64,000 nt of DNA from Sphyrna mokarran (taxonomy: Eukaryota): assembly GCA_024679065.1 (NCBI GenBank), contig JAGIQG010000016.1, positions 39,804,001 through 39,868,000 on the forward strand. Direction: 5' to 3'. Within the stretch, counting starts at the first letter, position 1. Each line of letters begins with the position of its first letter. Under the pieces are notes generated by a model. That model was not told the origin of the DNA. It saw only the letters and a program-made list of their open reading frames with translations, and searched no databases. Shown here piece by piece: positions 43,012 through 56,690 of this stretch. Both the position numbers and the translations under genes were made by a program.

Positions 43012-46000
43012 GTCTCCAGTGCAGCCGGCTTCTCCAATGCAGCCGACTTCTCCAGTGCAGCTGGGATTTCCAGTGCAGCAGACGTCTCCAGTGCAGCCAG
43101 TGTCTCCAGTGCAGCCGGCATCTCCAGTGTAGCAGGCATGTTCACTGCCGCCGGCGCCTCCTGTGCATCCAGTTTCTCCAGTGCAGCTAGTGTCTCCAAT
43201 GCAGCCAGCATCTCCAATGCAGCCGGTGTCTCCAACACAGCTAGTGTCTCCAATGCAGCTGGCTTCTCCAGTGAAGCTGGCATTCCAAATGCAGCTGGCA
43301 TCTCCAATGCAGCCAGCTTCTCCAGTACAGTCGGCAACTCCAATGCAGCCAGCATCTCCAGTGCAGCCAGCATTCCAAATGCAGCCGGTGTCTCCAGTGC
43401 AGCTGGCATCTCCATTGCAGCCACCGTCTGTAGTAAAGCCGGCATTTCCAATGCAGCTGGTGTCTCCAGTGCAGCTAGCATGTCCAGTGCAGCAGGCGCC
43501 TCCAGTGCAGCCAGTTTCTCCAGTGCAGCCGGCATTTCTAATGCAGCCAGTGTCTCCAGTGCAGCCAGCATCTCCAATACAGCCAGTGTTCAATGCAACT
43601 GGTGTCTCATAAGCAGCCGGCGTCTCCAGTGCAGCTGGCGTCTCTAATGTAGGTGGCACCTCCGATGCAGCCAGCATCTCCAATGCAGCTGGCATCCCCA
43701 GTGCAGCCAGTGTTTCCAGTGTAACCAGCATCTCCAGTGCAGCAGGTGTCTCCAATGCAGCTGGCGCCTCCAGTGCAGCCAGTTTCTCCAATACAGATAG
43801 TGTCTCCAATGCAGGCGGTGTCTCCAATGAAGCTAGCGTCTCCAGTGATACTGGTATCTCCAATGCAGCTGTTGTCTCCAGTTCTGCCAGCATCTCCAGT
43901 GCAGCTGGCAGCTCCAGTGCAGCGGGTGTCTCCAGTGCAGATGGCACTTCCAGTGCATCCAATTTCTAAAATGCAGCCGGCATCTCCAATGCAGCCAGTG
44001 TTTCCAATGCAGCTGCTTCTCCAGTACAGCCGGCATCACCAATGCAGCCGGCATCTCCAGTGCTGCTGGCATCTCAAGTGCAGCCAATTTCTCCAGTGCA
44101 GCCGGCATCTCAAATGCAGCAGGCATCTCCAGTATAGCCAGCATGTCCATTGCAGCCAGTGTCTCCAATGCAGCTAGTGGCTCCAGTGCAACTGGCATCT
44201 CCAATGCAGCCGGCATCCCCAATGCAGCTGGCACTTCCAGTGAAGCCAGTGTCTCCACTACAGCCAGTGTCTCCAGTGCAGCCAGTGTCCCCAATGCAGC
44301 GGTGAGTCCACTGACGCTGGCATCTCCAATGCAGCTGGCATCTCCAATGCAGCCAGTAACTCCAGTGAAGCTGGTGTCTCCAACGCAGCTGGTGTATCCA
44401 GTATAGCAGGCATCTCCCCTGCAACTGGCATCTCCAGCGCAGCCGGCATCTCCAGTGCAGCCGGCATCTCCAATGCTGCTGGCACCTCCAGTGCAGCCAG
44501 TTTCTCCAGTGTACCCTGCATCTCAAATGCAGCCTGCATCTCCAATGCAGCTGGCAAATAAAGTGCAGACGGAGTCTCCAGTGCAGCCGGCATCTCCAAT
44601 GCACTCCGTGTCACCATTGCAGTCGGGGTCCCCAATGCAGCCAGTACCTCCAATGCAATTGGCATCTCCAGTGCAGCCAGTGTCTCAGATGCAGATGGTG
44701 CCTCAAATGCAGCCAGTGTCTACAATGTAGCCAGTGTCTCCACTGCAGCCGGCATCTCCAATGCAGCTGGCTTATTCAGTGCAACCGGCATCTCCACTTC
44801 AGCCAGTGTCTCTAATGCAACCAGTGTCTCCAGTGCAGCTGGCACCTTCAGTGCAGCTGGCACCTTCAGTGCAGCCGGTGGCTCCAATTTCTCCAGTACA
44901 GCTCGCATCTCCAATGCAGCCAGCATCTTCAATGCAGCCGTTGCCTCCAGTGCAGCCGGCGCCTGCAGTTTCCCCAGTGCAGCCGGCATCTCCAGTGCAG
45001 CAGGCATCTCCAGAACAGCCGGTGTCTCCACTATAGCCGGTGTCTCCATTGCAGCCTGTTTTCCCAGTGCGGCTGGCATCTCCAATGCAGCCGGCTTCTC
45101 CAATGTAGCCAGCATCTCCAATGCAGCCTGTGTGTCCAATGCAGCTGCCCACTCCAAGCCAGTCTCCAGTGCAGCAGGCATCTCTAATGCAGCTGTCTTA
45201 TCCAATGCAACTGGCATCTCCAGTTCAGCCAGTGTCTCCCATGCAGCCTATGTCTCCAATGCAGCCGGAGTCTCCAGTGTAGCTGGTGTCCCTAGTGCAG
45301 CCGACATCTCCAGTGCAGCCAGCATCTCCAGTGCAGCCAGCATCCCTAGTGCAGCCGACATCTCCAGTGCAAGCAATTTCTCCAATGCAGCCAGTGTCTC
45401 CAATGCAGCCAGTATCTCCAGTGAAGCCGGCATCTCCAGCACAGCCAGTGTCTCCATACAGCTGGCGTCTCCAATGCAGCCAGCTGCTCCAGTGTAGCCA
45501 GTATTTCCAAGCAGCCGGTGTGTCCAATACAGCTGGCCTCCCCAGTGTAGCCACAGTCCCCAGTACAGCTGGCATCTCTAGTTCAGCCAGTGTCTCCAAA
45601 GCAGCTAGCATCTCCAGTGCAACTGGTGTCTCCAGTGAGCCAGCACCTCCAATGCAGCCAACATCTCCAGTACAGCCGGTGTCTCCAATGCAGCCAGCAT
45701 TTCCAATGCAGCCGGCTTCTCCAGTGAAGCACAATCTCTAATGCAGCCGGCATTTCCAGTGTAGCTGGCATCTCCAATGCAGCAGGTGTCTCCAATGCAG
45801 TCAGCATCTCCAATGCAGCCAGCATCTCCAGTGTAGCTGGCATCTCCAATGCAGTTGGCTTATCCAATGCAGCAGGTGTCTCCAATGCAGCTGGCATCTC
45901 CAATGCAGCCGACATCTCCGGTGTAGTTGGCATCTCCAATGCAGCAGGTGCCTCCAATGCAGCAGGTGCCTCCGATGCAGCCAGTGTTTCCAATGCATTC

Positions 46001-46072
46001 GCAGTCACCAGTGCAGCCGGTGCCTCCAATGCAACAGGCATCTCCAATGCAGCCGATGTCTCCAATGCTGCC
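43012..46072. repeat. 18-bp minisatellite array (left arm), unit ~TCTCCARTGCAGCYRGYR
   Basis: ~3 kb of 18-bp periodic units, producing the spurious LETPAA / PMQPAS / GCIGDA ORFs. Confidence 0.95.
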
Positions 46073-54006: not shown

Positions 54007-56690
54007 CTGCAGCCGGCCTGTCCAGTGCAGCCAGCGTCTCCAGTGCAGCCAAGCACTTCCAATGCAATTCAATGCCGATCTCTCTCATGACCTTCAGTGG
54101 CTGCAATGCATTTTGCTGAGGTTAGCTCCAATGCAGCCAGCTTCTCCAATGCAGCCAGCATCTCCAGTACAGCTGGCATGTCCAATATATCCAGCGTCTC
54201 CAATGCAGCTGGAAACTCCAGTGTAGTTCAATGCCAGTCTCTCACATGCATCTCAGTGTCCTCAATGCTGATGTTTTCCCCAATGCAGCCGGCATGTCCA
54301 GTGCAGCCAGTGACTCCAATACAGCCTGCATCTCCAGTGCTGCTGGTGTCACCAATGCAACCATCGTCTCTAATGCAGCCAGTGTCTCTAATGCAGCCGG
54401 TGTCTCTAATGCAGTCAGCATCTCCAATGCAGCCAGACTCTTCAATGCAACAGGTGTCTCCAGTGCAGCCGGTGCCTCCAGTGCAGCCGGTGCCTCCATT
54501 GTAGCTGGGATCTCCAATGCAGCCGGCGTCTCCAATGCAGTCGGAGTCTTTAATGTAGCAGGTGTCTCCAGTGCAGCCAGTGTCTCCAATGCAGCTGGGA
54601 TTCCAACGCAGCCAGTGTCTCCAACGCAGCCGGCCTCTCAAGTGCAGCCATCGTCTCTAGTGCAGCTAGCATTTCCAATGCAACTGGTGTCTCCAGTGCA
54701 GCCAACGTTTCCAGTGCAGCCAGTGTCTCCAGTGCAGCCAGCATTTCCAATGCAGCTGGTGTCTCCAGTGCAGCAAACTTCTCCAATGCATTCAGCATCT
54801 CCGATGCAGCCATTATTGCTAGTGCAGCCAGTGTCCAGCAGCCACTGCAGCCAACATCTCCAGTGCATCTAGAATCTCCAATGCAGCCGGCGTGTCCAGT
54901 GCAGCCACTGACTCTAATGCAGCTGACGCCACCAATACAGCTGGTTTGTCCAATGCAGCCGGCATCTCCAGTACAACTGGTATCTCTAGTGCAGCCGGTG
55001 TTCAGCTGCCAATGCAGCCAGTGTCTCCAGTGCTGCCAAGCACTTCCAATGAAGTTCAGTGCCGGTTTCTCTCAAGAACCTCAGTGTCTGCAATGCATTT
55101 TGCTGATGTTACCTCCAATGCAGCCAACATCTCCAACTTGACTGGTGTCTCCAATACAGCCAGTTTCTCCAATGCAGCCAGCTTCTCCAGTGCATCTGTC
55201 ATCTCCAATGCAGCCAGGGTCTCCAGTGCAGCTGGTGTCTCCAGAGCAGTTCAGTGCCAGTCTCTCTCTTAAGCATCTCAGTATCCTCAATGCATTTTGT
55301 TGATGTTTTCCCCAATGCAGCCAGCATGTCTAATGCAACTGGCATCTCCCATGCTGCTGGTGTCTCCAATGCAGCTGGCCTCTCCAGTGCAGCCAGTGTC
55401 TCCAATGCAACCGGCGCCTGCAGTGCAGCCAGCATCTTCAATGTAGCCCACATCTTCAAAGCAGCCAGTGTCTCCAATGCAGCCGCTGTCTCTAATGTAG
55501 CTGGGTCTCCAATGCAGCTGGGTTCTCAAATGCAACTAGTGTCTCAGGTACAGCCAGTGAATCCAATGCAGCCGGCCTCTCCAATGCAGCCTCCCTCTTC
55601 AGTGCAGCCAGCATCTCCAATGTAGCTTGCCTTTCCAGTGCAGCCAGTGTCTCCAATGCAGCTGGAGTCTCTAGTGCAGCCAGTGTCTTCAATGCAGCCA
55701 GCGTCTCCGATGCAGCCAGCATCTCCAGTGCATCCAGTGTCTCCAATGCAGCCGGCGTCTCCAATGCAGTCGGCCTCCCCAGTGCAGCCGATGTCTCCAA
55801 TTCTGCTGGTGACTTCATTGCAGCCAATATCTTCAATGCAGCTGGCGACTTCAATGCAGCTGGTGTCTCCAGTGCAGCTGGCATCTCCCGTGCAGCCTAC
55901 ATCAACAATGCAGCCAGCGTCTCCAGTGTAACCAGTACCTTCAATGTAGCTGGCATTTCCAATGCAGTTGGGGTCTCCAATGCAGCCAGTGTTTCCAATG
56001 CAGCCGATGTCTCCATTGCAGCCAGCGTCCCCAGTGCAGCTGTCATCTCCAATGCAGCCCATGTCTTCAAAGCAGCCAATGTCTCCAATGCAGCAGGTGT
56101 CTCCAATGCAGCTGGGGTCTCCAATGCAACCAGTGTCTGCAGTATAGCCAGTGTCTCCAATGCAGCCAGAATCTTCAATGCAACCAGTCTCTCCACAGCA
56201 GTAAGCAATGTCTCCAATGCATCTGAGTGAGAATCCCTCCAATGGAGCTTTGTGCTTTCAATGCATTTCAGTCCCAGTCTCTCCAAGGCAGCTGAGCATT
56301 CCAATGCAGTTCAGTGCCAGTCTCACACATGCACCTCAGTGTCTGCAATGCATTTTCCTGATGTTATCTCAAATGTAGCTGGCATCTCCAGTGCAGTAGG
56401 GTGTCCAATGCAGCCGACGTCTCCAATGCAGCCGGGGTATCCAGTGCAATCAGCGTGTCCAGTGCAGCTGATGTCTCCAATGCAGCCAGAATCTCCAGTG
56501 CAGTCGGCTTGTCCATTGCAGCCAGCCTCTCCAATGTAGCCGGCATCACCAGTGCAGCCGGCGTCTCCAGTGCAGCCTGTGTCTCCAATGAAGCCTGTGT
56601 CTCCAGTGCAGCCAGCGTCTCCAGTGCAGCCAGCATCTCCAATGCAGCTGATGCCTCCAATACAGCCAGAATGTCCAATGCAACTGCCAT
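54007..56690. repeat. 18-bp minisatellite array (right arm) with recurring spacers
   Basis: Same unit and orientation as 43012-46072. Confidence 0.95.

Follow-up and report, generated by a model that had tools for sequence, protein, structure and literature searches.

The 64,000-nucleotide stretch of Sphyrna mokarran DNA analysed here (the window) contains a 15.4-kb block (42976-58333) in which about 8 kb of DNA with pieces of two genes, a FAM187B-like gene and LSR, has an array of an 18-bp repeat on either side and a 28-bp repeat outside the arrays at both ends, in the nesting order 28(18(cargo)18)28. The evidence supports the view that this cargo is a truncated, dead genomic copy, which appears foreign to its surroundings. 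As to its origin, we tentatively favour a one-off transposed duplication in which a circle opened within the donor's own minisatellite tract, the apparent arms being one split tract.

The block and its surroundings

The features of the block are the following.

42976-43017, plus strand: 28-mer stub of 42 bp, about 1.5 units, at the left outer end of the block
43013-46076, plus strand: left array of the 18-bp repeat with 167 units, most of them in phase, and no long spacers
46069-46086, no strand: junction where FAM187B-like coding sequence meets the left 18-mer array
46077-47338, minus strand: FAM187B-like pseudogene of one exon, extending from the start codon across the two Ig-like domains
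47411-48797, no strand: 25-bp and 16/32-bp minisatellites of the cargo, G-rich, immediately upstream of the FAM187B-like start
49252-50935, minus strand: 5'-truncated LINE with an RT domain (RVT_1, E 9e-6)
52405-52435, minus strand: likely LSR last exon, degenerate, after the AG acceptor, as read from the sequence
52436-53462, minus strand: retained LSR intron, about 1 kb, holding G/C-rich simple tracts
53463-54009, minus strand: dead fragment of the LSR penultimate exon (orthologue residues ~384-574; three frameshifts, one stop)
53996-54016, no strand: LSR/right-array junction, with a shared CTGCAGCCG core; 9 bases on the gene side match a variant of the array
54007-56690, plus strand: right 18-bp array, about 131 units (131-132 by parsing), with 60-90 bp degenerate spacers
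56690-58333, plus strand: 28-bp C-rich minisatellite, about 60 units, forming the block's outer end on the right

The initial annotation had placed the limits of the block at 43012 and 56690 and taken the 18-mer arrays for its ends; both were wrong, since a layer of 28-bp repeat lies beyond them on each side. Its description of a GC-rich block in AT-rich flanks holds for the arrays and gene parts (0.54-0.57 vs 0.39-0.40 in the near flanks) but not for the LINE part (0.41-0.44). Tandem repeats occupy 18.2% of the cargo vs 0.87% of the flanks, which makes the donor the likelier home of the minisatellites. The LINE, which we take to be CR1-like, lies between units similar to an 18-bp repeat of an unrelated kind.

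The possibility that the flanks are the two halves of a coding element interrupted by the block was rejected: they gave a single Pfam match, at E 0.065, and the open frames spanning the joined flanks have only 5-51 codons. Neither a crude exon scan nor a 32-codon candidate yielded a host gene around the block. The sole N gap of the window is at 36790-36981, and the block is free of N.

Two dead gene pieces

By protein search, six of 5330 candidates matched the piece next to the left array (best E 6.6e-87), with an alignment running from 47338 to 46077 on the minus strand; three of the six are named FAM187B-like, and all four that carry an organism name come from sharks or rays. The copy is nearly whole, with the transmembrane tail missing, and it is dead, having four frameshifts and three stops. 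The break falls 4 or about 32-35 codons before the stop of the orthologues; which of the two applies turns on the reading of the last five residues. At invariant FAM187B codons, 12 of 128 non-CpG positions are changed (9.4%), and 19 of the 42 arginine sites in the cargo are products of CpG decay.

The LSR fragment was detectable by HMMER search only (a word-indexed protein search gave 0 of 21 candidates). We obtained four matches, with a best E of 2.3e-18; the best one carries the Pfam LSR domain (E 3.4e-23) and aligns through residues 382-574 of 585 to 54015-53463. A GT donor immediately downstream of the aligned exon and an AG acceptor near 52435 delimit the intron, and the candidate last exon that follows is too short for a significant tblastn match. 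Because this intron is retained, the cargo is genomic, as had been proposed, and not a retrocopy. The arrays were also said to abut the gene pieces directly, at breaks in mid-exon. Both breaks lie inside the coding sequence of the orthologues; on the exon structure that we assume for LSR, its break is presumably mid-exon.

The cargo holds several further minisatellites, so the region breeds repeats, and one could imagine that this is the parental locus itself, or a tandem paralogue nearby, with its genes interrupted by arrays grown in situ. We give this account hardly any credence, because the missing gene parts are not found beyond the arrays: tblastn gave nothing significant in the 64-kb window, neither for the FAM187B tail on the far side of the left array nor for the LSR exon start and upstream exons past the right arrays, where the window covers only 5.7 kb after the right end. 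The composition of the flanks is also unlike that of the cargo. In-situ growth at the parental locus, which the initial annotation had set against its own reading, is thus disfavoured.

The 18-bp arrays are not copies of each other

TRF, unit parsing and the strand of the core matches all agree with the earlier claim of two co-oriented 18-bp arrays. TRF finds period 18 at 43013-46055 on the left (168.8 copies, 70% matches) and at 54126-56682 on the right (137.6 copies, 65% matches), and a 14-base core with at most three mismatches gives 251 matches, all on the plus strand and only two outside the arrays. When the window was scanned with a two-unit profile, no further copy of the tract was found (best scores elsewhere -1.1 on the plus and 5.9 on the minus strand; median inside the array 48). 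Units diverge from the consensus by 10.0% and 11.3% in the two arrays and from one another by about 30%; this divergence is star-like, without local structure, and no clear higher-order pattern appears at the G/A site of the unit (agreement 0.46-0.62, lags 1-8).

The arrays had been taken for arms, but nothing supports a matched pair. Left and right show no colinear similarity exceeding shuffles, as the best inter-arm runs of 8, 15 and 25 units fall below the mean maximum of 100 shuffles, and spacers are present in the right arm alone, where one marker occurs in six copies and another in four. LTR-like terminal direct repeats were rejected for these reasons, and the difference in content and order between the arms counts in favour of the circle.

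Coding expansion of the genes, for example into a mucin-like stalk, was rejected as a source of the arrays, such a repeat being absent from the orthologues: a short hydrophobic tail follows the Ig domain in five of the six FAM187B-like matches, the sixth being truncated, and the repeat occurs in none; two LSR matches also lack an array-like repeat. The arrays do contain stop-free frames of 311 and 330 codons. A weak test, the three-frame translation of the repeat, gave no protein match when a capped set of 8000 candidates was scored at E 1e-5. Rfam and, as a contamination check, the repeat pattern in bacterial and archaeal genomes gave 0 matches; an Atlas search with the repeat gave matches of 0.85 or lower, not usable, and the open-access literature held only unrelated occurrences of the motifs.

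Transposon hallmarks

That no transposase, TIR or poly(A) is visible had been remarked before, and this analysis also found none. No transposase-like Pfam match was obtained in 1 kb of either flank; inverted scores of 13-18 do not rise above chance (control mean 16.6, 95% 22); and the longest A or T run is 2-3 at the inner joins and 6 at the right outer end. Across the outer ends there is no exact direct repeat of at least 9 bases, although an old short TSD may have decayed. Helitrons have a 5' TC and a 3' hairpin plus CTRR and lie between A and T; at the right terminus no CTRR was found on the plus strand, where about 10% decay could hide the ends, and CTAA is present only as part of every 28-mer unit. 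Retrocopying or LINE transduction is at odds with the kept intron and absent poly(A), and a TIR DNA transposon of the Pack type with the lack of both TIR and exact TSD.

Could the repeats nevertheless form a reusable non-coding carrier, in which circles or conversion tracts seeded by the 28/18-mer repeatedly pick up and spread gene pieces? The co-oriented repeats on both sides with direct joins to coding DNA, a diverged direct repeat of about 18 bases at the outer ends and the star-like divergence of the units, as from a burst, would suit it. We judge it improbable: there is one instance, old and dead, with arms that are not copies of each other and no second copy in the window, and the terminal and coding hallmarks examined above are lacking, the translated repeat being a weak test in this respect. 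Equally doubtful is the wider proposal that a 28/18-bp tract in shark genomes repeatedly excises with gene DNA and moves it from small GC-rich to large AT-rich chromosomes, with no transposase of its own. Nothing in the window shows a new jumping element or gives positive evidence for a mobile unit.

Junctions, the 28-bp stub and the order of events

Short shared bases were observed at all four inner joins, including both gene/array joints, where they had been reported, and the CTGCAG described at the LSR joint is present at 54007-54012. The GCAGCC core of the 18-bp unit is the site of both gene joins. The 9-base match at the LSR junction is 2 bases out of phase, and a match of at least 9 bases was reached by 19 of 1166 control 15-mers; at the FAM187B junction the gene-side match to the array is only 5 bases. 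A fold-back at the left junction, 10th of 116010 positions, overlaps the near-palindrome of the unit and is not relied on.

Misjoins are typical at long low-complexity arrays, and the assembler might have placed a dead piece of a paralogue in a contig where it does not belong. This is very unlikely, as the block has no N gap, the cargo is decayed by CpG loss and not a functional gene, the joins are base-sharp amid units that differ by some 30%, and the unique left flank continues directly into the stub.

The stub passes into the left 18-mer via shared TCTCC. Against the 28-mer consensus it scores 38, the top of 6196 windows (mean 10.9, sd 2.6), and against the actual array 48, the maximum among 382 flank controls being 36. 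Its nearest units by global alignment (ranks 1-3 of 60) all lie in the last ~220 bp of the array, and by local alignment ranks 1-2 of 49 are at the far end. Three of the four array copies of the stub variant CCATTGC are within the last 150 bp, and TCTAAT (4/4) and AGTCTCC (2/2) are confined to the distal half. The most similar unit tends to be a near neighbour in this array: it lies within 250 bp for 25 of 49 28-mers, 24% being expected. The last ~20 bases of the array resemble the first 18 of the stub, as a diverged direct repeat.

From this arrangement we infer a donor elsewhere, a native tract and a circle, in the following order. Long ago, a single transposed duplication would have carried DNA out of the LSR/FAM187B locus, rich in GC and minisatellites, to an AT-rich site elsewhere. 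At the donor, the two repeats would have formed an uninterrupted 18-28-18 tract adjoining the genes, either on the upstream side of the LSR exon or on the downstream side of FAM187B. The circle may have closed where coding sequence joined one 18-mer unit, guided by homeology; it would then have opened within the 28-mer before integrating, so that a short stub of this repeat came to lie at one end and the rest of it at the other, and the two arms would therefore be the two ends of one permuted tract. The second gene/array join would be a deletion, in the same event or later, and the copy, without function, would have been decaying since arrival. Break repair or circular-DNA reintegration, as first suggested, is the right class of mechanism, but not with the arrays as matched end arms; that they would have come from the donor as a single split tract goes beyond the two readings first offered.

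Besides the difference between the arms, the circle is favoured by the 28-mer in the same orientation at both outer ends, by the stub being closest to the far end of the array and by the 9-base homeology at the LSR join. The equal decay of FAM187B and the arrays is as expected if array turnover stopped on arrival, but it is also compatible with capture into a freshly expanded array. Against the circle, stub similarity is uncorrelated with position over the whole 28-mer array (Spearman -0.08, p 0.59, units not being independent), and the first unit of the array scores 40 against the stub, compared with 52 and 46 for the best two. The circle also needs the second, unexplained join, and the match at the FAM187B join is a mere 5 bases.

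From the end of the stub to the beginning of the right array, the phase of the 28-mer is roughly kept, which is not predicted by a circle but by nested insertion. In that case an 18-mer tract would have entered a resident 28-mer array near its left end, and LSR-FAM187B would have been copied into a break in the 18-mer by microhomology-guided repair, the template switching in at one gene and out at the other. A single event would then account for both mid-coding breaks, and the shared bases at four of four inner joins also speak for this account. The gene joins in the common GCAGCC core also let the arms rejoin in phase, although the joins are ambiguous over 8-10 bases of an 18-base unit, which makes this nearly automatic and of little weight. 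We find this explanation possible but rather unlikely, since the stub should match proximal 28-mer units yet matches distal ones, spacers occur on one side only and the flanks are nearly without minisatellites.

Comparison with known systems

The circle has published precedents, which count in its favour: human cSDPs (PMC7450558), eccDNA-mediated duplication (PMC7188851), tilapia vasa (PMC3245284) and the SVA-mediated integration of an lcr16a circle (PMC9132208). Like circular-DNA duplications, the block is an intron-bearing genomic copy, probably from a distant locus, without TE hallmarks, with what look like short shared bases at its joins and with ends resembling the two sides of an opened circle. 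Unlike them, the permutation is deduced from a repeat stub and not from donor comparison, the opening point would lie in a minisatellite and an extra join is needed; the inner joins also seem to have longer homeology than the 1-2 bases reported in human cSDPs (PMC7450558).

Nested insertion has its own precedents in Drosophila, namely the Dox family in 359-bp repeats (bioRxiv 10.1101/2021.08.05.454923) and Rsp-like in 1.688 arrays (PMC7403614), where mixed satellite clusters were proposed to move as higher-order units, and in the wtf genes between 5S rDNA direct repeats (PMC9562144). As in the Drosophila cases, co-oriented tandem repeats flank the gene pieces on both sides, one satellite lies within another and the joins show microhomology. 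Those cases comprise many loci, with pre-existing arrays shown at empty sites and cargo that may be selected (drive), whereas here we have one dead locus and 18/28-bp minisatellites in a vertebrate. The wtf and lcr16a cargoes are likewise flanked by direct repeats, with conversion or circle crossover proposed; those repeats, however, are dispersed gene or retrotransposon families with copies known at empty sites, neither of which is known for the shark repeat.

Helitrons and Pack-MULE-type transposons carry intron-containing gene fragments and can hold tandem repeats. Unlike them, the block showed neither a TIR nor an exact TSD, nor a 3' end with a fitting CTRR, and its cargo is one contiguous 8-kb stretch and not a mosaic.

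The open-access literature offered nothing useful on shark gene order around LSR/FAM187B; the circle predicts an 18-28-18 tract beside LSR or FAM187B at the donor. For annotation the block is a hazard, as the array frames are stop-free and the cargo yields false LSR and FAM187B paralogues. Many blocks with different cargo would amount to transposase-free dispersal of gene fragments, unreported for sharks in the open-access literature searched, and a carrier, if real, would be a vertebrate counterpart of the gene dispersal by 359 satellites in Drosophila. As one event, the block would be a well-preserved fossil of minisatellite- and GC-rich shark DNA copied into AT-rich chromosomes.

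Results

Decayed gene copies between the arrays

Two arrays of an 18-bp unit, the left and right arms, enclose sequence from two genes, which together form the cargo. Both genes lie on the minus strand, with a FAM187B-like gene 5 kb beyond the 3' portion of LSR.

Features of the block (window coordinates)
42976-43017, piece of a 28-bp minisatellite (the stub), 42 bp, directly before the left arm
43013-46076, left 18-bp array, 167 units
47338 (start codon) to 46077, minus strand, FAM187B-like gene, by alignment to orthologues
54015-53463, minus strand, LSR exon fragment, aligned to residues 382-574 of a 585-residue match
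54007-56690, right 18-bp array, 131-132 units
56690-58333, 28-bp C-rich array, ~60 units, directly after the right arm

The best of 4 HMMER matches for LSR (E 2.3e-18, 51% identity) is the 585-residue protein, which carries a Pfam LSR domain. The exon fragment runs into a GT donor, beyond which lie an intron of ~1 kb and a last exon that is degenerate and was called by eye; further downstream, at 51950-52120, is a G-rich tract whose minus strand carries degenerate, telomere-like hexamers. For the FAM187B-like gene, 5330 candidates gave 6 matches (best E 6.6e-87), 3 of which carry that name. The best ones with an organism name come from Scyliorhinus, Hemiscyllium, Chiloscyllium and Rhinoraja, so that the window resembles shark or ray DNA.

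The cargo is an old, dead copy. Aligned to its closest orthologue, FAM187B keeps 228 identical residues of 358 and is broken by 4 frameshifts and 3 stops; in the LSR exon we counted 3 frameshifts and 1 stop. At 42 FAM187B arginine sites, 19 codons are now CpG-deamination products, 19 still encode arginine and 4 are other; at codons invariant in all six matches, 12/128 non-CpG positions (9.4%) have changed. Array units diverge from their consensus by 10.0% and 11.3% (13 non-CpG positions) and therefore decay of cargo and arrays apparently began at about the same time, a match that is only approximate because the array figure takes in variants older than the amplification.

A search of the window turned up neither the tail of FAM187B nor the beginning of the LSR exon, and none of the LSR exons upstream of it. 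Growth of the arrays in place at the parental locus, which the initial annotation had considered, fits these missing parts poorly and is the least probable origin; misassembly, also a poor fit, is very unlikely.

Two unlike arms

As proposed earlier, co-oriented arrays with a common 18-bp unit do stand on both sides of the cargo (167 and 131-132 units), and the repeat was found nowhere else in the window. The arms do not match each other: units share on average 0.71 identity inside the left arm, 0.69 inside the right one and 0.70 across the two; at their best, colinear runs of 8, 15 or 25 units did not exceed what 100 shuffles gave; and the right arm has spacer motifs in 4 and 6 copies, the left in none. 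Three spacer copies differ pairwise by 11-16 per 87-88 bases. The most degenerate part of the right arm (56190-56366; spacer-related units of 21-62 bp), close to the 28-mer array, is possibly the seed that gave rise to the 18-mer. In both arrays, unit positions 14-15 and 17-18 alternate between CG, TG and CA, a methyl-CpG decay pattern, and annotators could mistake their stop-free frames, at most 311 and 330 codons long, for genes.

An outer 28-bp layer

The 18-bp arrays had been taken as the ends of the block; instead, the 28-mer array on the right and the stub on the left both lie outside them, and the block therefore reads 28(18(cargo)18)28 over 15.4 kb (42976-58333). Among 6196 windows the stub matched the 28-mer consensus best, and it scored 48 against the real array, flank controls reaching at most 36 (n=382). 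It most resembles units at the distal end of the array (ranks 1-3 of 60; ranks 1-2 of 49), and its three variant motifs are distal as well; neighbouring 28-mers tend to be most alike (25/49 vs 24% expected). Similarity showed no significant trend with position over the whole array (p 0.59), and with the stub the first unit scored 40, against 52. The outer ends of the block form a diverged direct repeat ~18 bases long; no exact direct repeat of at least 9 bases was found across them.

In line with the claim that no transposase, TIR or poly(A) is visible, inverted terminal repeats in the block did not exceed chance, no poly(A) was found at it, and the flanks gave no transposase-like Pfam match within 1 kb on either side. 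The block lacks the tested features of the LTR-like, TIR and retrocopy classes. A reusable carrier built on the repeats seems improbable; nothing positive speaks for it, a second copy was not seen in the window, and indirect searches of the repeats, each of low power, came back empty.

Gene/array joins

Both breaks fall within the coding sequence of orthologues. That they are mid-exon, as first annotated, leans for LSR on the mammalian gene, which normally has no intron at this point. The FAM187B break can be read in two ways: it lies either ~32-35 codons short of the stop, or 4 codons short of it with the membrane helix lost internally; the second is suggested because the last five residues, LHSCW, are found near the orthologues' C-terminus, and array sequence or CpG decay can also yield these letters. 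At the LSR join, 9 gene-side bases match an array variant, 2 bases out of phase (19/1166 control windows reach 9); at the FAM187B join the match is 5 bases only. An imperfect fold-back (46059-46086) is centred on the left junction, where the last FAM187B codons resemble a reversed 18-mer unit; it is not significant once the unit's own symmetry is allowed for.

Serial patching into resident arrays, the main rival explanation, would give both mid-coding breaks in one step; the in-phase evidence for it counts for little, since zones of ambiguity 8-10 bases long almost always overlap within an 18-base unit, and we consider this explanation rather unlikely.

Setting of the block

Flank GC is 39-43%, with LINE and other interspersed repeats. 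Tandem repeats make up 18.2% of the cargo vs 0.87% of the flanks, and G4-like motifs per kb number 2.15 in the block, 0.44 on its left side and 0 on its right. The LINE copies at 6426-8788 and 21737-24038, which we take to be CR1-like, have long open frames (588 and 755 codons, respectively) and are 78% identical, each ~65% to the cargo LINE; the second matches RVT_1 (E 7.5e-32). Small GC-rich tandem repeats of 16/31 and 24 bp (17623-17808) are unrelated to the 18-mer by profile scan. The sole assembly gap of the window (36790-36981, 192 N) lies 6 kb to the left of the block and adjoins a (TG)n tract. A candidate host-gene terminal exon (40269-40368, plus strand; pyrimidine tract, AG, 32 open codons, stop) may be chance, since PDB and Atlas searches gave no match; very AT-rich DNA separates it from the block. 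The right flank holds a 55-bp direct repeat (58936-58990 and 60005-60059; 91% identity, spacing 1069 bp).

In sharks, GC and simple-repeat content are higher on short chromosomes (PMC10620051). We infer that the donor, the original LSR/FAM187B locus, lay on such a short, high-GC, simple-repeat-rich chromosome.

Discussion

The explanation we tentatively prefer is a single transposed duplication through a circle. Going round such a circle, right 18-mer, 28-mer, stub and left 18-mer would be one continuous tract, closed by the cargo. If an 18-28-18 tract was native beside the genes at the donor, one homeology-guided join would form the circle, its opening within the 28-mer would leave the stub, and one deletion would produce the second gene/array join. 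This course of events would account for the co-orientation, the difference between the arms, the resemblance of the stub to the distal 28-mer end and the equal ages; it is weakest on the second join and on the 28-mer being roughly in phase across the 18-mer block.

Circle-mediated duplications are described in human (PMC7450558, PMC7188851, PMC9132208) and tilapia (PMC3245284); they are defined by an order permuted relative to the donor, whereas the block is known from the copy alone. Published cases of genes that have arrays on either side and have moved among them are Dox with 359 satellites (bioRxiv 10.1101/2021.08.05.454923) and wtf with 5S rDNA (PMC9562144); in Rsp-like/1.688 one satellite is nested in another, with microhomology, and mixed clusters move (PMC7403614). 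The block appears to work like these circle-mediated and satellite-associated systems and is a candidate, not an established, member of either class. Searches of open-access papers gave no description of the 18-bp and 28-bp repeats or of such a shark block, which supplements, Repbase or Dfam could hold.

The block is a genuine fossil, and an unusually clear one, of a dispersed duplication associated with repeats. Events of this kind are known, and this is a new instance; there is a modest chance that it is the first member to be seen of a minisatellite-based dispersal system in sharks.
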